A DNA stretch of 64,000 bases from a virus (Duplodnaviria > Caudoviricetes). Below, piece after piece: positions 8,411 through 60,678 of the stretch. The stretch spans positions 1 through 64,000 of IMG/VR virus record IMGVR_UViG_3300035425_000025. One strand, written 5' to 3'. The notes beneath the pieces were generated by a model. It saw only the letters and a program-made list of their open reading frames with translations, was not told the DNA's origin and searched no databases. How positions within the stretch are numbered: position 1 is the stretch's first letter; every line of letters begins with the position of its first letter. Made by a program: the position numbers and the translations under genes.

Positions 8411-9688
8411 TTATAATTCGTATATATATTCACCTACAAAATCTAAATTTCCATTATTCTTTAAACTAAACTCAGGATCATAATTACACAATCCAATTTC
8501 AGCTCCCTTTTGTAAATATCTATAAATTGTTCCGTATGGGATTTTTAATAACCTTGATATAGTATTTAGATTTTTTGTTTTAGTCATATACAAATGACAA
8601 GCCTCAACAATATTACTTGAGTAAGCTTTTCTATTTATTTCTGTTTTATTTATTTTTGATAAATCAAATAAATCGGACAGAATACTTTTCATGATATTTG
8701 AAAAAATGTAATCATAATCACTGTATAAACAATCTATTCTAATCATGGTTATATTATTTTGCGTTGCAAGAATATCTTTCTTTTTATCTATTTCTTGTAC
8801 CTGTTCTAGTGTTAATTTTGATTTTAAATGAACTTTATTGTGAAAACCACCATCCATTTCAATTACATACTTTATTCCATATAATTCAAAATAGAAATCA
8901 TATTCTGGGGTATAATCTCTACCATTAAATAAAAAACTTTGGTTTGGTATTCTATAATGATTAATAAATTTTACATCCAAATTTGATAATATATTACTCA
9001 TCATTTTTTCTGGATAAGAAAACCCATCCCCACAATATGGACATTGTATATAATTATTTCTTGAAACCACATCAATTTGTTTATGTTTTATCAACGAATG
9101 ACAAAAAGGACATTTCCAATCCACACATTTACCTGAATGCTGAGAATATTTATATCCATCATTAGGATTAGCTAATAACTTAGCCAATTCTGGGTTTGTA
9201 GTCCACATATCATTTACCCCACTCATAATTACTTTATTACTACATACAGGACATCGGTTTCCCATATCTAATTCACATTCCGCAACATTTGTAATATATC
9301 CATCTTTTATACATTTTACTTTATAAGAACGATATGATTTTCCATTTTTCTTTTTTATTCTATTAGTATCTAAAATTTCATATCCATTTATATTTTCTCC
9401 AATAGAATATTTAAACTTTGTTGTTAATAATCCAGTAATAAATCCGATATTACATTTTAACAATCCACTTGTATACATATGATATTCTTGTATATTATCA
9501 GTGAAATATACAATACGATTCATTTGATCATATTGTGTAATTTTAAAACGATAAATAACACCATTATAACGAATAGAAAAGTATTTATTGATACAGTTTT
9601 TCCAAATGATTTTTCCATTTGGAGATAATGATAATTCGTTTTTGAAAAATTTTCTATCTGCAATTTCTTTTAATTTTGACATTAACAC
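8411..9688 (-). CDS. Free-standing Zn-ribbon plus PD-(D/E)XK endonuclease-like protein (homing-endonuclease-like)
   Basis: CPVC, WKCPFC, CPYC ribbons; YDFY...VIEMDGGFH nuclease motif. Confidence 0.7.
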   Translation of the reverse strand: MLMSKLKEIADRKFFKNELSLSPNGKIIWKNCINKYFSIRYNGVIYRFKITQYDQMNRIVYFTDNIQEYHMYTSGLLKCNIGFITGLLTTKFKYSIGENINGYEILDTNRIKKKNGKSYRSYKVKCIKDGYITNVAECELDMGNRCPVCSNKVIMSGVNDMWTTNPELAKLLANPNDGYKYSQHSGKCVDWKCPFCHSLIKHKQIDVVSRNNYIQCPYCGDGFSYPEKMMSNILSNLDVKFINHYRIPNQSFLFNGRDYTPEYDFYFELYGIKYVIEMDGGFHNKVHLKSKLTLEQVQEIDKKKDILATQNNITMIRIDCLYSDYDYIFSNIMKSILSDLFDLSKINKTEINRKAYSSNIVEACHLYMTKTKNLNTISRLLKIPYGTIYRYLQKGAEIGLCNYDPEFSLKNNGNLDFVGEYIYEL

Positions 9689-10791: not shown

Positions 10792-10798
10792 ATAAAAA

Positions 10799-10823
10799 TA
10801 GGAGAGTACTGAAGACTCTCCTA
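10799..10823 (-). terminator. GGAGAG/CTCTCC hairpin (copy 2)
   Basis: TAGGAGAGT/ACTCTCCTA stem followed by TTTT. Confidence 0.6.
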
Positions 10824-10824
10824 A

Positions 10825-11240
10825 GAAATAAACTGCCATGTATTCAAATACAGATTTATTGGTCTTTTATCTGTACCTAACATACTGCGTACCAATAGCA
10901 TATGCTTGAATATCTTGTGGCAGGAAGTACACTTTATTGGCAGATTGATGGTCTGCTGCTAGACACTTATCAGGCGACTAACAAATATAAGTATTCAATA
11001 AATGTGCAATGTATAGCATGAAGCGTCCAACTAGCTATAATTGGAATCCGGATGCCCAGTTTTAATAGCTTTGCTATTCGCAAATCAATAAATGTCATCA
11101 TTAACGCAGATATCACGAACCTCTCAACACAGTGTAGGTAGTTGTCAACCTACTACGGATTCAGTTATTGCCGTTGATGCGTGTAAAACTTGATAATGAC
11201 TGCATGGACGTTATCTACAAAACACACATCTGTTTTAATC
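10825..11240 (-). ncRNA. Candidate large structured ncRNA
   Basis: No ORF of 60 aa or more; at least 8 local hairpins plus long-range pairs CGTCCA/TGGACG and CTGCCA/TGGCAG; strand inferred from flanking genes. Confidence 0.5.
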
Positions 11241-11259
11241 GTTGTATTGTTGGAAATAA

Positions 11260-11288
11260 TTGACAATATTTTAGAGATTATGTAGAAT
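11260..11288 (+). promoter_or_regulatory. Sigma-A promoter of type I toxin mRNA
   Basis: TTGACA-17 nt-TAGAAT. Confidence 0.75.
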
Positions 11289-11423
11289 AATAAGTGTAAG
11301 CAGCATCCAACGTTTCATTTAGGCTAGATGGGATGGTAAATTAGGTGGTTTGAGTCACGTCAGGACAGCAATGTTCTGTTTATCGGATAGATACCCTTGC
11401 TAAGAAAGGAGGGTGATAAAGAA

Positions 11424-11555
11424 GTGACATTTTGTGAATTACTAATTTTTACTTTAGTAACTGGCATTGTTAGCGGAGTAATCTCTGCGTACATAGTCAG
11501 ATTTCTTGATAAAAGACGCAAAAATGACCGCCACTCGCCAAAGCACGGTCATTAA
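11424..11555 (+). CDS. Type I toxin, Fst/Ldr-like membrane peptide (43 aa)
   Basis: AAAGGAGGGTG RBS; MTFCELLIFTLVTGIVSGVISAYIVRFLDKRRKNDRHSPKHGH has one TM helix and a basic tail; 5' and 3' UTRs are complementary. Confidence 0.8.
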   Translation: MTFCELLIFTLVTGIVSGVISAYIVRFLDKRRKNDRHSPKHGH

Positions 11556-11652
11556 TGCGTTAATGAATTCAATTTATTAGCCATTTTTGATTATTTGGCT
11601 CAAACCATCTAACGGATGCTGTTTTGCATTTTTATATAGAGTCTTTTCTATA
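11519..11652 (-). ncRNA. Cis-antisense antitoxin RNA
   Basis: Minus-strand TTGACA(11687-11682)-17-TAAGAT; terminator AATGACCG/CGGTCATT followed by U-tract; start estimated. Confidence 0.65.
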
Positions 11653-11774
11653 CTCATTATCTTATATCAAATTTATCATGGTGTCAATAGATTTACTTTT
11701 CATATAGTCTCATACTGTTTCATATCGTGCTATATTGTCATATAGTATATCACAATATAAAGAATAATTTCACT

Positions 11775-11790
11775 TGAAATTGGAGTTTCA
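11775..11790. repeat. Perfect 16-bp palindromic site beside the tyrosine recombinase
   Basis: TGAAA-TTGGAG-TTTCA, 7 bp past the recombinase stop codon. Confidence 0.65.
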
Positions 11791-11797
11791 AAGTGGT

Positions 11798-12811
11798 TTA
11801 TTCAGAAAAACCAAACATTTCATTTATTGTATCATCTGAATGATCCTTGAGATAGGATTGGGTGGTACTAACATCAGAATGGTGAGCAAATACCTGAACC
11901 TGTTCCAATGGATATTTTCTAATATTTCCGTTTTCATCAACTAAACGAGTATCTGTTCCTTGTGCTAGACATTCTAATCTGCTATGTCTCATAGTATGAG
12001 GGAATATATTACATTCTTCACCACGAACTTCTGACAATATTTTAGATATTGAACATACTCTATCATATAAAGCATCGCCTGTAATTGGTTGCTTATCATC
12101 ACCAGAACCTTTAACCCATAATGAATCTATATTATCTTCTCCACGTTCTTCTAAATACCTTCTTATCAATTCTTTAGTATCATCAAGATATACTAAACAG
12201 AATTTTTTGCCACGTTTACCAATAACAATATTTGTTTTATTCCCGTCTAAAAGTCCATGCTTTTCGATTTGAAACAATTCATTTCTACGTCCAGCAGAGT
12301 CAAATCCTATGCTCCATAGGCATGCGTCTTGTAATCTACCTCTTTCTACAAGAATATCTCTTACTTTCATAAATTCATCAAAAGTAAAAAAGAAATTATC
12401 CTCATCATCCTTGACTGGTTTCTTAGGCAGACCTGCGACTTTTTTACTATAATTTACTTCATAATCATAATCATCATCTTCTTCGCAAAAAGTCAACAAA
12501 CTATTGCAAGCACTTTTTAATCTATTTACTCTAGCTGCTGACATTTTACACTCTTCTGAAAAATATAAACTAAGTCCACGAAAATCTTTTTTCTTTAATT
12601 CAAGAATAGAACGGTTCCCTAATTCCTTTAATATGTATATCATCACAATCCTAAGATCATTATAATATCCACTAATCGTTCCTTTTGATTTTTGCCTCTG
12701 TTTATATTCTGCAAGAAAGTCATCAATAATTCTTTTGTTTTCCTTATTTACTTGTTCCCATAATTCAGGAGTGTAAAAATTATTATAAATTCTCCCACGC
12801 ATAAACATCAC
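11798..12811 (-). CDS. Tyrosine recombinase (XerC/integrase family)
   Basis: SAGRRNEL, FPHTMRHSR, HHSDVSTT..Y catalytic signature; N-terminal core-binding domain. Confidence 0.9.
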   Translation of the reverse strand: MMFMRGRIYNNFYTPELWEQVNKENKRIIDDFLAEYKQRQKSKGTISGYYNDLRIVMIYILKELGNRSILELKKKDFRGLSLYFSEECKMSAARVNRLKSACNSLLTFCEEDDDYDYEVNYSKKVAGLPKKPVKDDEDNFFFTFDEFMKVRDILVERGRLQDACLWSIGFDSAGRRNELFQIEKHGLLDGNKTNIVIGKRGKKFCLVYLDDTKELIRRYLEERGEDNIDSLWVKGSGDDKQPITGDALYDRVCSISKILSEVRGEECNIFPHTMRHSRLECLAQGTDTRLVDENGNIRKYPLEQVQVFAHHSDVSTTQSYLKDHSDDTINEMFGFSE

Positions 12812-12847
12812 TTCCTTTCAAATAAAAAAAGAAGTGATAGCAAAATA

Positions 12848-14371
12848 CTAAACAACTTCTTTCTTAGGTCTTGTATTTCTTATTATGTTTTGTGAATAAT
12901 CTAACTCACCAATATTTCTTACTTTTCCCCAGTCAATATTATTTTTATAAAATTTTTCTATTTGATGCTTTTCTTGTAAAGATGGATTATATATGATGTT
13001 TGTAAAATTTTCTTGTGTTAAATCGCATGGAAACAAAATAAAATATTTTAATCCATTATTTTTTAACATAAGTTCTTTTTCTTTTAGTTTTATCCGATAT
13101 TTCTCTTTTGATTTGCTTTTAGATATTTTTCTATTTTCATAATACCAAGTTTTATAATCTGCAATAATCCCAGCAATTTCTATATATAAAATATCGTTTT
13201 GTGTATGTATTACATAATCACAATTCATATTTCCATGATAGTTATTAATAAAATTTGAGTATTTGATATCCCTAAAATAATCTTTATTAAATATAAATCC
13301 ATTTTCTTTCAGAAACTTAGAAAACATATATTCATATTGACTTGCAACATGTTCTTGATCATCAAAATCATAATTAAGTCCCTGCCCTTGATTACCAAAA
13401 ACAATGCCAAAGTTACTAAAATACTTTATAAAATTGACACCATAATATTTTTTACTCATTCTATCTAAAGTACCATAACTCGACCATTGACTACTTTCGT
13501 GAATCTCTCTAGTAGTAGTAAAATTTCTGTTTTCCTTAGCCAAAAAATCTAATATATTTTTTACAGTCGCATCGAAATCTTCTTTAGATAATTGTTTATC
13601 CATCATGCTTTCTTGAACAATTTCTAAACCAAGTTCTTTTTTCATTTTATTTAAAGAACCCCAATATTTTTTAATCATTGTTACACCAATTTCATCCATA
13701 TTAGGATTCTTAAAATCCTTGTATTCTAATGGTCTATTAAATTTTGATTGCATATTCATAATAATATTTACACAATCTTCTTTGGTTAAATTTTTCGATT
13801 GCCCACCACGAGTTCTTATTTCATATTTTTCTGCATTAGATAAACTATATCCACATAGTTCAAGCCAATCTACTAAATCACCGCCAAGATATTGCTCATA
13901 CATTCTTAGTGTTGGCATTTTATTCTCAGGTCTAAAGTCTTTTTTCTTAAATTTTGGATATCCATTCTTTTCTACAAAATCTCTTAATTTTCTTATTAGA
14001 AATTTTTTGATTTTTTCATCATTATTCTTAAAAGTACCAACATTCAATTTTGCGGTTGGCATTACATCAAATTTACAATCTAAACAAAGATAATCATATC
14101 CATATTTTTCTGTATATGATTTGATTCTTGTATATTCCATTTTTGTTATTTGTTCTTTTCTTTTACAAATGTCACATTCACACTCAACTATAAGATTTGA
14201 ATTAGGTTTTAAGTCTTCTACGGATACATCAATAGTCGTTCCGTTGACAATAGAATATGTATTATGTCTTTTATTAAAATATCGAGGTATTTCATATCCT
14301 AATTTTTCATAATATGATGCCATATTTCCGGATACATCAATCTTAACTTTTTGTGGTAATATTAATCCCAT
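12848..14371 (-). CDS. Free-standing homing-endonuclease-like protein
   Basis: CECDIC Zn ribbon, repeated helical units (KKYWGSLNKMKKELGL), CDY.I...YIEIAG PD-(D/E)XK-like C-terminus. Confidence 0.65.
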   Translation of the reverse strand: MGLILPQKVKIDVSGNMASYYEKLGYEIPRYFNKRHNTYSIVNGTTIDVSVEDLKPNSNLIVECECDICKRKEQITKMEYTRIKSYTEKYGYDYLCLDCKFDVMPTAKLNVGTFKNNDEKIKKFLIRKLRDFVEKNGYPKFKKKDFRPENKMPTLRMYEQYLGGDLVDWLELCGYSLSNAEKYEIRTRGGQSKNLTKEDCVNIIMNMQSKFNRPLEYKDFKNPNMDEIGVTMIKKYWGSLNKMKKELGLEIVQESMMDKQLSKEDFDATVKNILDFLAKENRNFTTTREIHESSQWSSYGTLDRMSKKYYGVNFIKYFSNFGIVFGNQGQGLNYDFDDQEHVASQYEYMFSKFLKENGFIFNKDYFRDIKYSNFINNYHGNMNCDYVIHTQNDILYIEIAGIIADYKTWYYENRKISKSKSKEKYRIKLKEKELMLKNNGLKYFILFPCDLTQENFTNIIYNPSLQEKHQIEKFYKNNIDWGKVRNIGELDYSQNIIRNTRPKKEVV

Positions 14372-14795: not shown

Positions 14796-15071
14796 TTATA
14801 GTGTCTTAACAGATTTACTAATCGTAAATTTCAATTCATCATGTGCTGGCTTTGTCCATTCCTTGCCTCCTGCAAGAGCAGCAACACCACTTCTCTCAGC
14901 AACATGCCTTACAGAAAACGTACCAATTCCAGGAAGAGGAACCTTTTCATCACGACTCTCGTTCAATGCTCCAAGTAAAAACTTTCCATAGGCATCCATA
15001 ACTGCCTCTGCAACCTTATTTGTAACTTCTGCCTCAGAAGCAACTGCTTTAATCATATCGTTCTTTACCAT
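14796..15071 (-). CDS. HU-family DNA-binding protein (YonN-like)
   Basis: V.LPGIGTFSVRH.AER.G...FTISKS.K HU signature; AAAGGAG RBS before ATG 15071. Confidence 0.9.
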   Translation of the reverse strand: MVKNDMIKAVASEAEVTNKVAEAVMDAYGKFLLGALNESRDEKVPLPGIGTFSVRHVAERSGVAALAGGKEWTKPAHDELKFTISKSVKTL

Positions 15072-15112
15072 TATAAAAATCTCCTTTATTTTCAATGTTT
15101 TTCATCAAAATA

Positions 15113-15312: not shown

Positions 15313-16557
15313 TTAATTCAAAATAAATTTATATGTTTCTATGTGTCCGTATGTACTATCAAATCCATATATTTTAACAGCAGCTTTGCTACCTTTCATA
15401 ATAGAATCACTATAAGGATCGCTACCAACGAAAGAAGGACTTACCAATATTTCCGTATCATTACAACATCCTTCAAAACTAGGAATTTCCTTACCAGAAT
15501 GAAAATGTCCTAATAATAGATAGTCAATAAAGCTTCGTCTCATCATACTTAAATCACGTATAGAATTTTCTATATTTTTTAACTGATGGCCATGCATAGC
15601 AATAACTTCATTTCCCATAATTGGAATTTCTATGTATTGTTTGCCTTCTTCAGCCAAATGAACAGAAATTCTTTTATTACCAATACATAAGTCTTTTATA
15701 TAATTTCCAATAAGATATTCTAAATCCTCATCTGCAATTTCACTTGCTTTAGTTCCTAATGGACGTAATTGACTATGATTTGCCGAAGGGGTATGATAGT
15801 ATTCAATTTTTGTATACACAGATAATTCTCTTAAAAATAATGCGATTAACCTACTAATCTCCACAGTAGATCTAACAATTGTAGAATCGTTAATTTTTAA
15901 ATCACTAACACGTAAAATTCCCTGTACCATATCGCCCAATGAAGCTATATAAAGTTTTGTTACTTTATGTTTTTGAATGAATTCAATAACATATCCAGAT
16001 AAATTTTCAAATCGTTCTTTTACGATTTCTGGTGAATATTCATTATTTTCACTTTTAAATTTTGCACCATAATGGATGTCTGCAAGAGACATGATATATC
16101 CTAATTCGTTTTCTGCTGAATCATAATATAGTGGCTGAAATTCTGGAAGTGGAAGAGCGGTACAAACATTACCAACATATTCATAATACATTTCTTGACG
16201 AGATTCATTTCTATCTACACGGTTCCGCTCTATATTGGCAGTCTGCAATTTCATACGTTCTTTTCGCATATCTGCAATTTTCTTATCTAATTCTTTCTCT
16301 CTTGAAAATTCTTCTGGATTGGTATAGATTTGATTTTTAAGATATTCTGTTCTAAACTGACCGCCAAAGATAGTAGAAGATGCCTTGCGAATTGTATCTG
16401 AATTGCAGGTAATATTATATTTTGCTTGGATCTCTACCCAATCAAGATCGTTATTTCCTTCTAATTTATCAGAAATATCCTTACATACCTTTTCATATGT
16501 ATCAGTAGTTAATCCATACTTTGCTAATTCTTCATTAAAATTATACAGAGTAGTCAC
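15313..16557 (-). CDS. Metallophosphoesterase (YonJ-like)
   Basis: ADIHYG, LGDMVQG, ANH, MHGH, GHFH calcineurin-like motifs after an N-terminal coiled coil. Confidence 0.85.
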   Translation of the reverse strand: MTTLYNFNEELAKYGLTTDTYEKVCKDISDKLEGNNDLDWVEIQAKYNITCNSDTIRKASSTIFGGQFRTEYLKNQIYTNPEEFSREKELDKKIADMRKERMKLQTANIERNRVDRNESRQEMYYEYVGNVCTALPLPEFQPLYYDSAENELGYIMSLADIHYGAKFKSENNEYSPEIVKERFENLSGYVIEFIQKHKVTKLYIASLGDMVQGILRVSDLKINDSTIVRSTVEISRLIALFLRELSVYTKIEYYHTPSANHSQLRPLGTKASEIADEDLEYLIGNYIKDLCIGNKRISVHLAEEGKQYIEIPIMGNEVIAMHGHQLKNIENSIRDLSMMRRSFIDYLLLGHFHSGKEIPSFEGCCNDTEILVSPSFVGSDPYSDSIMKGSKAAVKIYGFDSTYGHIETYKFILN

Positions 16558-18081: not shown

Positions 18082-20841
18082 TTATTTTGTCAACTTGGTT
18101 GAATTTTTCTTTTTTTGATACATCTTTTTATTATGTTCTTTTCGTTCTTGCTGCAAACAATCATCACACCTGATTCTTTTACTGTTAGTAAGAACTTCAA
18201 GCCATTCACCGCAATCAATACATTTAATAAATTTAGTCTTCTCCACTTCAATATTTCTTTCCAAATTATTTACAATATATTGTCCATAACAGAACCATAA
18301 TAACTGTTTATATCGTTTTCCTTTACCATATAGATATTCTACTAACATATCTGTGATAGTTTCTTCTGAATATCCAAACATAGCAAATTCTTTTCGTATT
18401 TTACAAGCAATATATCTGAGATTATCTATATATTCATCTTTCATATTGATCATATAACGGTATTGTTTGTTTAACTCATCATATAAATCAGATACCTCTT
18501 TACTACAAATAATTTGGAGATTAGACATCATATGTTTATAATTGATACTATCTAATTTCAAACCACGAGTATTTATAGGCTTATTAGGAATTCTCTCATA
18601 TATCTTATTTACAAAACTTTCATTACGCTTTTTTACTTGTGATTTTTCTTTATCCTTTGCATATTCAAAGAAAGCTGGCAATTTGCAATTTATGTATTTA
18701 GCAATCTGTTCATTTATTTCATGAGGAAATTCTGGTTTATATAAGGTCTTTGCGTAGTCGATCACAAAATTATTTTGACAACATAATCTCTTTACACAAT
18801 CAATTGCTTCCGATTTTTCTGCATCGGTTCCAGAAATAAATACATCATCATTCCATATCTTAGAAATATTATTACTGTAAATACCAATATTCCCACCCGT
18901 AAAAGCAGCATTAAGTCCAGCATAGATATTCTTATTGTTAAGCTGAGTTGGTTCTGCCTTTCGCATATTATAGTAGAGTGGTACAATACCATTCATATTA
19001 CGCTCTGCAATTCTTACAAAATCTTTATCAGCAACAACGAGACTTTTATCTCCGTCAACATCATACATCAAAATTTTACTGATTAGATCATGTGTGCTGG
19101 CATAAATTCCATCAGTAGTAAACCATTCTCTGATATATTTTGACCTGTCTCCATAAACTTCATTGGCAACATTAAAGCGAATTGCGTGTTCCTTGTATAG
19201 ATGAGGACTTCTTAAACAATCCAATTTTTCATATCGCTTAAATAACCAACAGAATACTTCTTTATCACTTAGTAAACCAGTAGGAGTATCAATATGTCCA
19301 AACCAATACTCACAAGCAGCATAGAAATCAGGTAGTAAAAAAGTGTATTTCCCATTTACTTCAAGTTTCCCGCTACGATATTTCTTTAAGAGACTGTTCT
19401 TTACTTCACGGATCACATCTTTGGCATATGAATCATTCAGCAAAGCAGGGTACATTTTAACTGCTTTCTGGAATGCAGTCATATTTGTGTTATACGGTGT
19501 AATGCCCAAAATATCCATCATAGTATCTTTAGAACTACAAACATTGCTGATCCGTTCCGCTGATTTCTGTGTAAGTAAATAAATTTCACCATCAGTAATA
19601 TTTGTAAGCGTCTGAAGCATCTGATAATTTATTTTGGCATTTTTAATCCTATCTTCTTCAACATTACATTTACCGGCACTACAATGATACTTTTTGAAAT
19701 CATCTTTGTACTCATCCCATGAGTCATAATATTTGTACATCTTGAACTGACTTTTCGTAAAGATAACCTGTATATCCTCTTTAATAACATCGTATTCCTG
19801 ACCATAAATGTCTGTAATAATAGGAGAGTAGTTATTAACTTCTATAAACTTCCTAAAATTGAACACACCTAATAATCCCTTAATCCAGGGCGCACGGAAC
19901 ATAAAGTTTTTACTGGAAACTGACGGCAGAATCATACCAGCTCCGTCAGTATGAGGAATTGGCACATAATCAGTTTTTCTTGTAATTGAATAATCAGTCT
20001 CATCTACAAAGTCAAAAGTATCATATACATTAGTCTCAAAATCATCAATGACAATGGATTTATCAATATCAAATTCATTCCACTCATCAGTAGCAGAGTT
20101 TGTTAAAGCCATATAAGCCAGATGCTTATTGACATTGTTTCCACCTTTTGAATTAATTTTATCTATTGTAAGACCACACATAACAGTCTTTTCAATCTCA
20201 TTCCATACAGATTCTTTAACAAATACTGCCTTCTTTTTACGGATCTGTCCTGCTGAAGAAGTAAAATACTTATATTTTTCGCCTTTATATGTAAATCCAT
20301 AAAAGGATATATCCTTAAACACATCAAAATAGTAAACCTGAACCACCATTAGAGCATCAGTTAATTCATCCTGTTTAATACCAATGGTTCTACTGAGAGC
20401 AGAGTCAAACACAGATATTATATTTGTATCATTCAAACTGTCTTTTTTGATTGTACGAGTATGATCTTTTCCATCTGTTAATTCATTCTGATTAACTTTA
20501 TTAGATAAAAGAGTAAGCAACTTTGCTTTTGACTCTTTCGCTTTTTCTCTTTTATGCTTAATTAACCTTGCCCAATGTAAATATTCAGAAACAGTGTCAT
20601 AAGAAGATTCAGTAATATTAACTTCTTCTGTTTTATCATTTTTTAAGTTTTTAATATCATCTTCTGTATATCCAAACTGTTTCAACTGCTTTTCAATTTC
20701 TGGTAATTTATTCTGGACATAATTACGTTCTCTGCGATATTTGCAATTCATATTATGTAAATATTTCTCATGATTGCTGTAAAAATGCCCAGTATCTACA
20801 GAATACATATTATATTGCTTATCAAGTATATATACCACCAC
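18082..20841 (-). CDS. yonO: Single-subunit RNA polymerase, SPbeta YonO-like
   Basis: 919 aa; HTDGAGMI, FRAPWIKG, LRSPHL and catalytic YDVDGD; upstream of HU, phosphoesterase and terminase as in SPbeta. Confidence 0.85.
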   Translation of the reverse strand: MVVYILDKQYNMYSVDTGHFYSNHEKYLHNMNCKYRRERNYVQNKLPEIEKQLKQFGYTEDDIKNLKNDKTEEVNITESSYDTVSEYLHWARLIKHKREKAKESKAKLLTLLSNKVNQNELTDGKDHTRTIKKDSLNDTNIISVFDSALSRTIGIKQDELTDALMVVQVYYFDVFKDISFYGFTYKGEKYKYFTSSAGQIRKKKAVFVKESVWNEIEKTVMCGLTIDKINSKGGNNVNKHLAYMALTNSATDEWNEFDIDKSIVIDDFETNVYDTFDFVDETDYSITRKTDYVPIPHTDGAGMILPSVSSKNFMFRAPWIKGLLGVFNFRKFIEVNNYSPIITDIYGQEYDVIKEDIQVIFTKSQFKMYKYYDSWDEYKDDFKKYHCSAGKCNVEEDRIKNAKINYQMLQTLTNITDGEIYLLTQKSAERISNVCSSKDTMMDILGITPYNTNMTAFQKAVKMYPALLNDSYAKDVIREVKNSLLKKYRSGKLEVNGKYTFLLPDFYAACEYWFGHIDTPTGLLSDKEVFCWLFKRYEKLDCLRSPHLYKEHAIRFNVANEVYGDRSKYIREWFTTDGIYASTHDLISKILMYDVDGDKSLVVADKDFVRIAERNMNGIVPLYYNMRKAEPTQLNNKNIYAGLNAAFTGGNIGIYSNNISKIWNDDVFISGTDAEKSEAIDCVKRLCCQNNFVIDYAKTLYKPEFPHEINEQIAKYINCKLPAFFEYAKDKEKSQVKKRNESFVNKIYERIPNKPINTRGLKLDSINYKHMMSNLQIICSKEVSDLYDELNKQYRYMINMKDEYIDNLRYIACKIRKEFAMFGYSEETITDMLVEYLYGKGKRYKQLLWFCYGQYIVNNLERNIEVEKTKFIKCIDCGEWLEVLTNSKRIRCDDCLQQERKEHNKKMYQKKKNSTKLTK

Positions 20842-21539: not shown

Positions 21540-21974
21540 TTAAGCAACACCTCCCACACCATATTTCTCTATTCGTTCATGTACATATCCGTCATTGGTT
21601 GTATAGTAAATATCTTTAATTCCAAGATCCTTAATTGCTGCCATACAGGAAGGACAAGGACGTGATAATCCAAACGGCTGATCCTTGCGAATCCTATATA
21701 TGTATAACTTGACTTTTGAAAAGTTAATATTCAAATGTCTGATAGAATTTATACAGTTAATTTCTGCGTGTAACTTTGGTAACATATTTTCCGATGGCTT
21801 TCGATACTTATTATATTTTTTCTGTATTGGATGAGTCTTATTACAGTTGCAACCGATGCCAATGATATTGCCTTGATAAACGGACACACATCCAATGTGG
21901 GTTTTATAATAATCAGATATACTGGCAGTCTGTCTTGCCTTGTCAAAATATCTATAATCACTTTTGGTCAACAT
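21540..21974 (-). CDS. Zinc-dependent cytidine/dCMP-type deaminase
   Basis: LHAEINC and RPCPSC motifs. Confidence 0.85.
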   Translation of the reverse strand: MLTKSDYRYFDKARQTASISDYYKTHIGCVSVYQGNIIGIGCNCNKTHPIQKKYNKYRKPSENMLPKLHAEINCINSIRHLNINFSKVKLYIYRIRKDQPFGLSRPCPSCMAAIKDLGIKDIYYTTNDGYVHERIEKYGVGGVA

Positions 21975-38102: not shown

Positions 38103-38384
38103 TTGAATCTCGTATTTCAACAGGAGGTAAATAAAGTGGTGACATGTAATAAATGCAGAAGAGAATGTGAATACAGGAATAAAAAATTTAAAGATGTTTC
38201 CTTATACTGTGACACTCATTGTACCTATGATTTTAAGATAGAATGTGATAAAATAGCGACAGATGATTTTCGGAAAGTAATTCAAGAATTAAAAGATGGA
38301 AATTTTTCTAATGCTGCCGTTACAGGAATATTAAAACAAGCGCAGTGCATTTTAAATGTTGCTGATAACATTATGGAGGAATGA
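38103..38384 (+). CDS. Cys-rich hypothetical protein
   Basis: CNKC...C..HC; true start probably GTG near 38138 after GGAGGT. Confidence 0.65.
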   Translation: MNLVFQQEVNKVVTCNKCRRECEYRNKKFKDVSLYCDTHCTYDFKIECDKIATDDFRKVIQELKDGNFSNAAVTGILKQAQCILNVADNIMEE

Positions 38385-45121: not shown

Positions 45122-45157
45122 CTTGAAATCATCGTTTCAACTCACGGAGGGAAAACA

Positions 45158-45760: not shown

Positions 45761-46621
45761 ATGGGAAATAAAACAAAGCAAATAGGTAAAACAGAAGTGT
45801 ATCCGTTCTGGGATATGGAAGATATTAAGAACATGATGGACTACTTTAAGATGAAAGAGATGTGGCATTGGTATTTAGTATTTAACTTTGGATTGCTTCT
45901 GGGGAGACGCATAAGTGACACACTTTCGCTAAAATGGTCTGATTTTTTCTATGAAAATAGAAGATTGAAGGATGAGACAGATATAGTGGAATGGAAAACA
46001 GGGAAGACTGTCAGACTATATATTTGTCCAGCTTGTCAAGAAGCATTGAAATTATATATTGATAAAACTGGCACAGACCCGATGGATAATTATAACGATT
46101 TTGTTTATGGAACTGCTCAAATGTCACAGTTATTAGAAAATAAAGAAGAGTATCCTGAAGAAGATTGGAAGGAACTAATGATGAAAGCAATACAAAGTCA
46201 TGCTGCAGCATTTAGAAAACAGTTTAAGTTAGCAGCAGATGCCTGTAATATACAATATGCGACTTCGACTCATAGTCTTAGGAAAAATTTTGGATACTGG
46301 TCAGTTAAACTTCATCCATATGATGTGACAACTGTAGACAAATTGCAAGGGATATTTTCACATTCTGATCGCAATACAACTCTTCGCTATATCGGAATTT
46401 CAAGAGAAGATGAAAAGAAATTATATTGTGATATGGGAGATTTTATCACTGATATTTCTAACGGTAAAAAGCCTGTAATAAAGAATAGTCCTGTATTGGC
46501 AATAAAATCAGAAGACGCAAGAGAATTATTTAGCAAGTGCTTTGATATGGCAAAAGACGGAGAAGAGAAGTTTGAAGTTATAAACAGAATTCTTGGTATG
46601 GCAGAGAAATGTATGGTATAA
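45761..46621 (+). CDS. Tyrosine recombinase/integrase
   Basis: LGRRISDTLSLKW, STHSLRKNFG, FSHSD.NTT.RYIG; no arm-binding N-domain. Confidence 0.9.
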   Translation: MGNKTKQIGKTEVYPFWDMEDIKNMMDYFKMKEMWHWYLVFNFGLLLGRRISDTLSLKWSDFFYENRRLKDETDIVEWKTGKTVRLYICPACQEALKLYIDKTGTDPMDNYNDFVYGTAQMSQLLENKEEYPEEDWKELMMKAIQSHAAAFRKQFKLAADACNIQYATSTHSLRKNFGYWSVKLHPYDVTTVDKLQGIFSHSDRNTTLRYIGISREDEKKLYCDMGDFITDISNGKKPVIKNSPVLAIKSEDARELFSKCFDMAKDGEEKFEVINRILGMAEKCMV

Positions 46622-51402: not shown

Positions 51403-51449
51403 ATGATAGTCTTGAAATCCGGTTTTCATTTGTATAGGGGGATAAAAAT

Positions 51450-52220: not shown

Positions 52221-52258
52221 TTATAACATGAAATGTTGCTTTCAAGAGGAGAAAAATT

Positions 52259-59346: not shown

Positions 59347-59568
59347 TTATTTAGAAGTAGTATCACTTTTATTTATTTCAATTTTAAGATCAAGAGCATT
59401 GCATATATCAACTAGAGTATTACAGTTGGGGTTTCCATTATTAAAATATTGGCTAACAGATTGTTGTGATTTATGAATACGAACAGCTAAATCTTTAACT
59501 TGAATATCATCTATATCCATATATTTTTTGATTTCTGCTAATATTTCTTTTGAAGTTTGATGCAGCAT
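59347..59568 (-). CDS. XRE-family HTH regulator
   Basis: DLAVRIHKSQQSVSQYF.NGNP..NTL.DIC.ALD. Confidence 0.85.
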   Translation of the reverse strand: MLHQTSKEILAEIKKYMDIDDIQVKDLAVRIHKSQQSVSQYFNNGNPNCNTLVDICNALDLKIEINKSDTTSK

Positions 59569-59748
59569 ATGTCACCTCTTGATTAATGTTTGAGATGATT
59601 ATACAATATAAACAATGATTATACAATATTTTTGTTGAAAATTATATAAATATATATATTGTAATTACAATATATATATTGTATAATATGAAGTATCAAA
59701 GGCAAAAATGTAAGATTTTACATAACTCAGAGGGAAGGAGGATGCGAT

Positions 59749-60099
59749 ATGGAAGTTAAACGATATGATATAGTACAAGCTGACTTGAGTGGAAGTATTG
59801 GGTCAGAACAGGGTGGTATACGCCCAGTACTTGTCATTCAAAATGATATTGGCAATTTACATAGTTCAACAACTATTGTAATGCCGTTTTCCACAAAAAT
59901 ATTTAAAAATCCTAATCAGCCAACGCATACTCTTATAAAGAAAAGTGATAAGACTGGCTTAAAAATGGATTCGATATTACTTGGAGAACAAATGCGTGTT
60001 ATTAGTAATGAACGTATTAAGAAAAAAATTGGATCGGTGACAGATGTAAAAGAACAAAATGAAATTCGCAGAGTATATGCGGCTAATTTCGGAGAATAA
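59749..60099 (+). CDS. mazF: PemK/MazF-family endoribonuclease
   Basis: RYDIV.ADL...GSEQGGIRPVLVIQNDIGN.HS.TTIV, EQ.R.IS.ER. Confidence 0.9.
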   Translation: MEVKRYDIVQADLSGSIGSEQGGIRPVLVIQNDIGNLHSSTTIVMPFSTKIFKNPNQPTHTLIKKSDKTGLKMDSILLGEQMRVISNERIKKKIGSVTDVKEQNEIRRVYAANFGE

Positions 60100-60395: not shown

Positions 60396-60434
60396 AACTG
60401 GAATAAAATAGAACATGCGTTCCTGTTTTTCCTA

Positions 60435-60463
60435 TTGACAAATACAAACACATGTTCTATACT
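60435..60463 (+). promoter_or_regulatory. Sigma-A promoter upstream of the tRNA pair
   Basis: TTGACA-17-TATACT. Confidence 0.8.
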
Positions 60464-60678
60464 TATCATTGTCAGGAACAACTAAACAAAAAGACCCATC
60501 CTCAAACGGTGCTGCAACACCATCGGACAGGTCTTATGTATACATACAAATTCATTTTATGAATTTGATTGAGCAGAAACGCTCACTTGTATTATTACAT
60601 ATTTGAAACATTTTGGTCAAGTGGTAATTTCAAGCGATTCTGCACAGATTCAAAACTAGAATAATTTAATAAAGATAT

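Follow-up and report, generated by a model that had tools for sequence, protein, structure and literature searches.

A short palindromic element with a strict six-base centre at early operon junctions of large gut phages that carry a conserved Xer-like tyrosine recombinase

Background

We have identified a short palindromic DNA element, (A)TGAAA-N6-TTTCA(T), that recurs at operon junctions in the early regions of a clade of large gut phages. The stretch analyzed, hereafter the window, comprises 64,000 nt and forms the first 64 kb of a 74,102-nt virus record (IMGVR_UViG_3300035425_000025; Caudoviricetes). It contains rec, a gene predicted to encode a tyrosine recombinase, with an 18-bp palindrome just past its stop codon. 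An initial annotation of the window took this palindrome for a cassette-type site in an attI-like arrangement.

Among described systems, the Xer recombinases (XerA, XerC/D and XerH) and their dif sites are closest to rec in sequence and fold. Both have two domains and no arm-binding domain, and dif, like the element, consists of inverted arms around a 6-bp centre. Xer systems differ in having one site per replicon with arms of about 11 bp, whereas up to 31 copies with differing centres occur here and only 5-6 bp of each arm are conserved; moreover, rec scores far below the orthologue cut-offs (58 against 335 bits for XerC). Integrons (IntI, attI, attC) likewise combine a tyrosine recombinase with short palindromic sites that bound promoter-less cassettes. 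Here, by contrast, rec does not match IntI, the sites lack a conserved GTT crossover triplet, and the adjacency of site and gene is not kept. The sites are also only 16-18 bp long, unlike attC sites, which are imperfect repeats of 57-141 nt. Integron parts of the classical IntI/attC kind are reported from phages (PMC9892861).

Two phage systems also bear comparison. PeSLs are mobile regulatory cassettes of T4-type phages, for which modular shuffling between copies is described (PMC2839356). They share with the element repeated short intergenic stem-loop motifs, plastic regions of small genes, and insertions, deletions and replacements among relatives that are bounded by the motif. PeSLs are characterized by a strong promoter, a terminator stem-loop and homology between copies. 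The element, in contrast, leaves no room for a promoter in its 16-18 nt, has an A/T-rich stem of 5-6 bp and a strict, unique 6-nt centre, and offers 16-19 nt of identity; it is followed by no T run, G being the commonest base at +4 to +8. In SPbeta, MrpR (YopR), a protein with a tyrosine-recombinase fold, keeps three of seven catalytic residues and binds the repeated intergenic element SPBRE, a 15-bp motif in about ten promoter regions (PMC10516654). MrpR and SroF of phi3T are both among the fold matches of rec, a repeated element is present in SPbeta as it is here, and the window phage shares with SPbeta a YonO-type polymerase signature (PF05183) and a distant YomM-like match (27% identity). 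However, no catalytic residue has been lost from rec, and the element is found mostly in intergenic DNA rather than in mapped promoters.

In the laboratory, heterospecific lox and FRT sites have the same arms and different centres; only same-centre partners recombine, and the segment is swapped in register. That is an engineered use, whereas the element described here is natural. A limited literature search, in which supplements were not covered, returned neither a natural heterospecific-site exchange system nor a description of the element. The element has the defining features of none of the Xer sites, attC sites, PeSLs or SPBRE/MrpR. A palindrome beside a recombinase is ordinary when taken alone; an element found clade-wide at gene junctions is not.

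Results

Abundance and form of the element

The core TGAAA-N6-TTTCA occurs six times in the record (positions 11775, 16778, 45124, 51413, 52229 and 55410), against 0.63-0.75 copies expected, and none of 100 shuffled sequences reached six. Among the 1024 possible five-base arms, TGAAA is the most over-represented in the record at this spacing. Three of these copies, and a further one with one mismatch, are placed after a stop codon and ahead of the ribosome-binding site of the next plus-strand gene:

45124-45139, plus strand: element TGAAATCATCGTTTCA, between a stop codon (TAG) and GGAGGG-ATG
51413-51428, plus strand: element TGAAATCCGGTTTTCA, between a stop codon and a ribosome-binding site
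52229-52244, plus strand: element TGAAATGTTGCTTTCA, between a stop codon and a ribosome-binding site
38104-38119, plus strand: one-mismatch element TGAATCTCGTATTTCA, between a stop codon and AGGAGG

Relatives that carry rec were examined for the same core, namely complete or near-complete genomes of 149-205 kb (G005, G007, G008, G009, G012 and G013) and less complete records of 125-182 kb (G006, G010, G011 and G014). The element is present at 26 copies in G009 (176 kb; 1.54 expected), 31 in G007 (205 kb; 1.57 expected), 13 in G008 (1.47 expected) and 6 in G005 (0.72 expected), and at 3 copies in the phage part of G001, a contig of a metagenome-assembled genome (MAG), where 0.76 are expected. 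The 188 kb of host-like DNA in that contig contain one copy, against 0.95 expected. G011, G012, G013, G014 and G010 have 21, 8, 9, 5 and 2 copies, respectively, and a reversed control motif gave 0, 0, 3, 0 and 0. The proposal in the initial annotation that a palindromic motif with a 6-bp centre separates early genes is thus borne out across the clade, where the motif punctuates early operons with 6-31 copies in the window's record, G005 and G007-G009.

The form of the element is narrowly defined. Spacing is strict, with 26 (G009) and 31 (G007) copies at N6 and only 0-1 at N5 or N7. The arms are sequence-specific: in these two genomes only TGAAA is strongly enriched, and none of 15 compensatory variants is clearly so. 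All centres within a genome are distinct (26/26 in G009, 31/31 in G007), a result that chance alone would give, and all centres in the window's record differ from one another as well. One of the latter, TCATCG, recurs in G011, but its flanks there are unrelated and its orientation with respect to transcription is reversed; this recurrence may be due to chance. Most copies (21/26 in G009 and 24/31 in G007) lie outside ATG-initiated open reading frames (ORFs) of at least 80 aa, which cover 77-80% of these genomes. Among 47 plus-strand copies, A precedes the core at -1 in 41, T follows at +1 in 33 and at +2 in 27, and G is the commonest base at +4 to +8. The element is therefore written in full as (A)TGAAA-N6-TTTCA(T)(T), and a ribosome-binding site commonly follows within a few bases. 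When a start codon was strictly required in addition to such a site, only 9/26 (G009) and 12/31 (G007) of the perfect copies qualified. The wobble asymmetry of one-mismatch variants, RNA versus DNA, was 9 against 6.

Identical copies in unrelated surroundings

G009 and G007 have 11 identical 16-mers in common, where the base composition of the centres predicts 0.25-0.38. Flanks of 60 nt were compared at each of these sites; the background, set by unrelated 60-mers, averages 0.53 identity and does not exceed 0.60. Both flanks are homologous at three sites (0.87-1.00) and both are at background at five (0.50-0.63). At two more, the upstream flank is at 0.97 with a downstream flank either at background (0.55) or partly alike (0.72), and one site has a weak downstream likeness (0.70).

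Five of the shared copies are colinear, lying at 21617, 23130, 24300, 25288 and 25912 in G009 and at 164658, 165296, 166878, 167594 and 169390 in G007. The intervals between them differ in length, and BLASTN aligned only the sites and a few short patches. Of the four intervals, the first three gave no protein similarity with TBLASTX, whereas a 206-nt stretch is common to both genomes in the last. The shared 16-mers recur in G010, G012 and G013 with flanks unrelated on both sides, and G009 and G011, although nearly identical, differ at one site, where flank identity is 1.00 upstream and 0.60 downstream. A comparison of the early region with that of G001 was strongly diverged and yielded only short patches of 70-93% identity.

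Where homologous flanks have diverged, it is the centres that drift and the arms that are retained. Slow drift thus does not explain how identical centres come to lie in unrelated flanks, and such centres point to exchange at the sites.

The palindrome beside rec

One copy of the element, in an atypical form, stands at the 3' end of rec:

11774-11791, no strand assigned: 18-bp palindrome TTGAAA-TTGGAG-TTTCAA, TTGAAATTGGAGTTTCAA, an atypical member of the (A)TGAAA-N6-TTTCA(T) element
11798-12811, minus strand: rec, tyrosine recombinase gene, a 337-aa ORF with a PF00589 match (E = 3.1e-7; 30.8 bits against a cut-off of 27.1)
11775-11797, minus strand: conserved 3' flank of rec, including block CTCCAATTTCA (gene strand, 11785 down to 11775)
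11772-11777, no strand assigned: recurrent mosaic breakpoint at the outer edge of the palindrome, where DNA homology ends for 6/9 close relatives

The palindrome is as the initial annotation gave it, except that the gap to rec is 6 nt instead of 7 bp, since the stop codon occupies 11798-11800 and the palindrome reaches 11791. Its description as a perfect copy of the early-gene motif holds only for the core, TGAAA-N6-TTTCA, which does recur at operon junctions. The 18-mer itself is unique in the window, where allowing up to three mismatches adds only 38103-38120 (three mismatches), and it is unique in the whole record at up to two mismatches. The pattern TTGAAA-N6-TTTCAA has two copies, at 11774 and 45123, with different centres; 0.07 are expected, and 1/100 shuffles gave at least two. 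Elsewhere, the centre hexamer TTGGAG lies mostly within ribosome-binding sites (ATTGGAGG), and these occurrences may be what was taken for identity. Perfect inverted repeats of the 6+6+6 type number 40 in the window, or 367 with spacers of 3-10. The bases that border the rec-adjacent copy are T (-1) and A (+1), and it is not followed by a ribosome-binding site on either strand.

The perfect palindrome had no match in 338,822 nt of loci L002-L044 and none within the first 70 nt past the rec stop in 86 loci. Locus L067, with a protein identical to rec and DNA 99.6% identical over 2,537 nt, reads TTGAATCTCCAATTTCAT, which has a mismatch in each arm of the palindrome; it presents the typical context of the element with an imperfect left arm, and a contig from sequencing run X8 shares its left-arm change, T11786A. 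Block CTCCAATTTCA, with one mismatch allowed, is kept in 8/10 relatives of at least 85% protein identity (L042 and L082 are without it), and the rec-adjacent site is degenerate in 8/8 of these block-keepers, with 3-4 of 5 left-arm positions retained. The perfect symmetry in the window is a lineage-specific accident on a conserved 3'-flank block. Besides the ribosome-binding region GAAAGGAAGTGA, no noncoding 11-16-mer near rec was common to many of 39 loci and the window. In five relatives, AWCTCCAATTTCA with up to one mismatch had 19 matches against 2 for a control, none of them exact and none near rec.

Two RNA-level candidates for the palindrome were set aside. A role as terminator was rejected on account of a weak fold (-9 kcal/mol with flanks; z -2.45), the lack of a T run and its absence from the terminator scan. 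A match to the Gut-1 RNA at 11712-11793 on the minus strand, to which four UGAAA repeats give rise, scores 21.7 bits where the threshold is 50 (E = 0.21 over 1.3 kb). It is probably due to chance, because it does not use the palindrome as a stem and its score is under the threshold. The Rfam scan of the window gave only five tRNAs above the gathering threshold.

A recurrent joint between rec and variable cargo

DNA homology to the window ends at 11772-11777 in six close relatives (L067, L065, L066, L044, L041 and L068). Of the other three, L002 and L069 share the window's cargo, and in L042 homology stops at the stop codon. Block CTCCAATTTCA is followed by at least six different sequences in close relatives, and the continuation in L067 consists of a ribosome-binding site and a small Cys-rich ORF. 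In an independent run of a different study, X15, there are contigs in which 11577 is joined to 11775 and 11670 to 11774. The site marks the exact joint of a conserved rec unit with interchangeable cargo. The initial annotation's suggestion of array-like cassette boundaries is supported by this shared breakpoint at the edge of the rec-adjacent site, as well as by the identical sites in unrelated flanks described above. A second copy of the core, CAATTTCA, was not found consistently at the far end of the cargo in nine loci, and a position-weight-matrix scan of the block gave one strong match in the 74-kb record.

Variable sequence is found on both sides of rec:

10795-11773, no strand assigned: variable cargo of shuffled modules (11578-11773, 11260-11577, about 10929-11085, and 10795-10830) from rec to tRNA-Tyr
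12848-14371, minus strand: 507-aa gene in a second variable slot upstream of rec, with a weak, below-cut-off match to the homing-endonuclease-associated repeat PF18780

The edge of the upstream slot is also sharp, with homology resuming at about 12817-12862 and a loose contig end in run X8 at 12862. The 507-aa gene is absent from L065, L066, L041 and L044, which have about 1 kb of other DNA instead. No convincing long inverted repeats, such as would mark an invertible segment, flank rec.

The rec protein and its conservation

Translation of rec probably starts at the ATG at 12802, because most homologues are 334 aa long. The PF00589 match spans residues 157-323, and a SAM-like domain matches the N-terminus below threshold. 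In an alignment of 11 sequences R175, H272 and R275 are invariant and K199, K202, H310, H311 and Y320 nearly so, in agreement with the intact recombinase residues noted in the initial annotation. The best PHROG matches are phrog_36816 (function unknown; N-terminal half) and phrog_1, annotated "integrase". XerC, XerA and XerD rank highest among NCBIfam models, all far under their equivalog cut-offs (58.3 against 335, 53.5 against 220 and 30.6 against 330, respectively), and the integron-integrase models TIGR02249 and PRK15417 gave no match at E <= 0.1.

A direct sequence search of PDB returned nothing useful for rec or for rec2, a second recombinase-family gene described below. A profile built from 11 rec homologues matched XerA (5hxy) and XerD (1a0p); its top match, a chain labeled RaiA, aligns as a Xer-type recombinase through the Arg, the Lys and the HxxRH motif. 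The AlphaFold2 model of rec is of moderate quality (mean pLDDT 70.5; pTM 0.51). Foldseek ranked XerA first, followed by lambda Int, phi3T SroF, IntI, XerH, XerD, Cre and YopR/MrpR; the probability was 1.00 for XerA, lambda Int, IntI, XerH, XerD and Cre, with low TM-scores of 0.3-0.44. The model has the core-binding plus catalytic domain fold. By sequence, rec encodes an intact two-domain tyrosine recombinase of the Xer/Cre type without an arm-binding domain. It adds a member to a known family, and on its model scores it is neither a XerC/D/A orthologue nor an integron integrase.

The window also encodes a terminase and five tRNAs, has a second PF00589 gene, and includes two genes that adjoin rec:

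14796-15095, minus strand: HU-type DNA-binding protein (PF00216, E = 1.9e-14), in the conserved exonuclease-HU-rec block
15313-16557, minus strand: exonuclease (phrog_284), in the conserved exonuclease-HU-rec block

A total of 1409 rec homologues were found at E <= 1e-3. Loci related to rec came from 39 viral contigs, 53 metagenome contigs and 4 MAG contigs, the last titled Lachnospiraceae, Eubacteriales, Aminipila and Clostridiaceae, and the stretch itself is present in mouse-gut metagenome runs of 12 studies. In 38/39 viral loci rec is 63-93% identical, and in 25/39 an exonuclease and/or HU homologue lies within 3 kb upstream. rec remains 71-82% identical where the neighboring exonuclease is only 23-41% identical. 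Among six whole genomes, 15-mers common to at least five formed a single 20-nt block (located in G009), inside the rec orthologue. Homologues from cultured phages (152 records, all below 60% identity) include those of Enterococcus, Staphylococcus, Lactobacillus and Bacillus phages and YomM of SPbeta at 27%. In this clade of gut Clostridia phages, with genomes of 125-205 kb, rec is thus a core gene under strong conservation and forms part of an exonuclease-HU-rec block.

A conserved single site of the lox or dif kind was sought in the same six genomes. No 15-mer was shared by at least five outside the rec block, and the only inverted repeat with arms of at least 8 nt and a spacer of 4-9 in at least four of the six was a terminator hairpin, AGGAGAGT...ACTCTCCT.

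A second recombinase gene and an integrated relative

Among the early-region elements lies another gene of the same family:

45761-46621, plus strand: rec2, second recombinase-family gene, 286 aa (PF00589, E = 2.8e-10; catalytic domain only)

The R, K, HxxR, H and Y residues of rec2 are all present, the protein has a C-terminal extension, and it scores only 16-17 bits with the integron-integrase models. The gene is situated in the plus-strand early region that holds the copies of the element with a ribosome-binding site, and a distant rec2 homologue directly follows an element in both G009 (about 26.0-26.8 kb) and G007 (about 169.5-170.3 kb). In G009 and G007, the complete relatives with the most copies of the motif, the nearest 10 kb or so around rec are free of sites, a result that removes the attI-like arrangement proposed in the initial annotation. 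The choice of rec as prime candidate for acting on the sites, made on the basis of adjacency, is not sustained either, because that adjacency fails in motif-rich genomes. The candidate enzymes are the conserved rec and the early-region rec2-type gene; adjacency of the palindrome to rec is evidence for neither, and the rec2-type gene is at least as good a candidate.

In G001, the G+C content of a 262-kb MAG contig (contig 1), about 0.40 at first, drops to about 0.29 near 188 kb; from about that point onward the contig is syntenic with the window's record. At the junction (L059, 8000-9800), two host-like genes, for an ion channel and a low-molecular-weight phosphatase, precede a 232-aa PF00589 ORF and then a PemK toxin gene. 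This ORF lacks an N-terminal domain and differs from rec. Window positions 60433-60650 are 76% identical to the DNA around its start and are followed by tRNA-Gln and tRNA-Met. These features are suggestive of an integrated relative, or possibly of a chimeric MAG contig. Other PF00589 genes with strong scores, canonical integrases, occur in 4/5 large relatives, and no large serine recombinase domain was found in the five large relatives searched. rec is therefore probably not the lysogeny integrase, given these other PF00589 genes at the G001 junction and in the large relatives.

Further features of the window and its relatives

Several further observations concern the DNA on either side of rec. 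A second large gene of the homing-endonuclease type, at 8411-9688 on the minus strand, also occupies a variable slot near rec, and phrog_4538 and phrog_9084 are matched by the pair that it forms with the 507-aa gene. Within the cargo, the 11260-11577 module (plus strand) encodes a hydrophobic ORF from a GTG at about 11424 to 11555 (43-52 aa), preceded by a near-consensus promoter, TTGACA-17-TAGAAT, and the ribosome-binding sequence AAAGGAGG; it is opposed by a TTGACA-17-TAAGAT promoter at 11687-11659 on the minus strand. In its layout the module looks like a type I toxin-antitoxin system. It moves as a unit, being 97% identical in L065 at another place and having contig joints at 11577.

Next to tRNA-Tyr, about 290 nt on the minus strand (10795-11085) contain no ORF, with a terminator hairpin at 10823-10799 just before the tRNA gene. 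The segment is 78-83% conserved in L067, L002 and L069, and L067 has its own TTGACT...TATAAT promoter ahead of it. The wider region 10795-11660 folds better than shuffled sequences on both strands (z about -5.7). Rfam had no match for 10795-11085, which is probably a small RNA gene.

A 919-aa protein encoded at 18082-20841 on the minus strand matches the RdRP family PF05183 (E = 2.3e-10) and phrog_8308. These matches make a single-subunit RNA polymerase of the YonO type, known from SPbeta, its probable identity, which would link the clade to SPbeta-like phages; YonO is among the subjects of the review PMC8270828. An 18-nt inverted repeat (17539-17556/18076-18093; 94% complementary, containing TTGACA, with 519 nt between the arms) flanks a 103-aa ORF just downstream of this polymerase-like gene. 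A perfect 26-bp palindrome, ATATATATTGTAATTACAATATATAT, is found at 59652-59677 with further ACAATAT repeats, between ORFs at 59347-59568 (minus strand) and 59749-60099 (plus strand). Its place, in the divergent region ahead of a gene for a PemK/MazF-type toxin, makes it a probable operator.

Rec homologues of 36-38% identity in L040, L109, L110, L111, L112 and L113 have 3-4 in-frame TAG codons at conserved positions, which were checked directly in L040, L109 and L113. The pattern suggests that these phages read TAG as an amino acid.

Discussion

We tentatively favor the possibility that the elements are core sites at which a tyrosine recombinase carries out site-specific cassette exchange, the centre serving as overlap. 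Two inverted arms of 5-6 bp around a rigid 6-bp centre would constitute the core-site layout for such an enzyme, and tyrosine recombinases need matching overlaps in partner sites. With a centre that differs at each site of a genome and is identical at matching sites across genomes, only same-centre sites would recombine and gene order would be kept. The elements would then act as recombination linkers, and co-infecting relatives would trade cassettes in register at them. Site-specific exchange would account for the strict spacing, the confinement of identity to the 16-mer, the order-preserving exchange and the unusual conservation of rec.

A more elaborate proposal, which we consider somewhat unlikely, is that the comparisons reflect a natural "address-coded" cassette exchange, with shared arms ATGAAA/TTTCAT, unique 6-bp overlaps, dozens of Xer-like sites and a conserved recombinase. 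Site k would recombine only with site k of a co-infecting relative, and the genes between two sites would be swapped while gene order is kept and the phage's own genome is neither deleted nor inverted. rec would be the most conserved DNA of the clade because compatibility with all of the clade's sites is needed.

Several observations weigh against site-specific exchange. Only 5-6 bp of each arm are conserved, and the sites of Cre, FLP and Xer have arms of 11-13 bp. Copy numbers range from 2 to 31 among the counted genomes, all of which bear rec. Centres drift, by eye, where flanks are homologous (G009 64077 with G007 8469, and G009 113200 with G007 85232). BLASTN block ends lay within 25 nt of a site in 5 and 6 of 116 cases, about 1.1 being expected, in a test that is generous because block ends favor intergenic DNA anyway. 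Identity of 16-19 nt could also support rare homologous exchange. Finally, many copies have a ribosome-binding site shortly downstream, and a role at the RNA or translational level would directly explain these sites, given the G-rich +4 to +8.

The last two points lead to an explanation akin to PeSLs, which is nearly as likely as the site-specific one and which we also regard as possible. The element would be a regulatory signal in the first place, for example a protein-bound RNA or DNA hairpin directly ahead of the ribosome-binding site, and boundaries would arise by homologous or annealing recombination at the sole short identity; the recombinase would have an unrelated job such as multimer resolution or genome circularization. 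The run of the consensus into purine-rich +4 to +8 and the intergenic position of 21/26 and 24/31 sites are in keeping with this, specific arms and a fixed loop size suit a hairpin that is recognized by a protein, and T4-type PeSLs do mediate modular shuffling by recombination between copies (PMC2839356). The place of rec within a replication/recombination block with an exonuclease and HU, and the motif-rich relatives without a site near rec, are also readily accommodated. An identity of 16-19 nt is, however, very short for homologous exchange, and the standing of rec as the clade's most conserved DNA stays unexplained. The element also has neither a promoter nor a terminator-grade stem, unlike PeSLs, and the search of six genomes for a conserved lox- or dif-like single site, on which a resolvase might act, gave none.

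The integron-like platform put forward in the initial annotation, in which cassettes are captured at a rec-adjacent attI-like site and the early motifs are attC-like, fares far worse, and we hold it to be highly improbable. It draws on the at least six downstream continuations that start at the same nucleotide, on the X15 joints at 11774/11775 and on the integron parts reported in phage genomes (PMC9892861). Against this, rec has no match among integron-integrase models, its adjacent site is degenerate in 8/8 block-keepers and the block is missing from 2/10 close relatives, and neither G009 nor G007 has a site near rec. No repeat of the site bounds the cargo, the weight matrix of the block gave one strong match in 74 kb, and the upstream boundary of rec at about 12862 is equally sharp without such a site. 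The rec-adjacent site could not exchange strands with the early-region sites in any case, because all centres differ.

It is likewise improbable, though less so, that the case is an ordinary one, with the palindrome a chance or vestigial hairpin without function and rec a lysogeny integrase. The 40 perfect 6+6+6 inverted repeats in the window, the lineage-specific nature of the perfect symmetry, the weak hairpin (-9 kcal/mol with flanks; z -2.45) and the apparent integration of a related phage in a MAG contig would all fit. Yet the junction of that integrated relative carries a different PF00589 gene, and 4/5 large relatives have separate canonical integrases with strong PF00589 scores. rec itself lies mid-genome, within a block of replication type, and its conservation far exceeds that usual for integrases, and the recurrent breakpoint at the site together with the clade-wide enrichment of the core is not a matter of chance.

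Conclusions

Phage genomes are mosaic, and few mechanisms that place the joints are known; to our knowledge, those documented are bacterial integrons and the PeSLs of T4-type phages. The junction element described here is short, sharply defined and countable, and its copies have the same centres in the same order across genomes with unrelated genes between them. It is found in widespread large gut phages, all of which have an unusually conserved Xer-like recombinase. Should the recombinase not act on the sites, the elements would still be a clean model of short regulatory signals that fix the breakpoints of phage mosaicism. If it does act on them, they would represent a natural counterpart of the heterospecific-site exchange used in the laboratory, and genes would have a new route by which to pass between gut phages.

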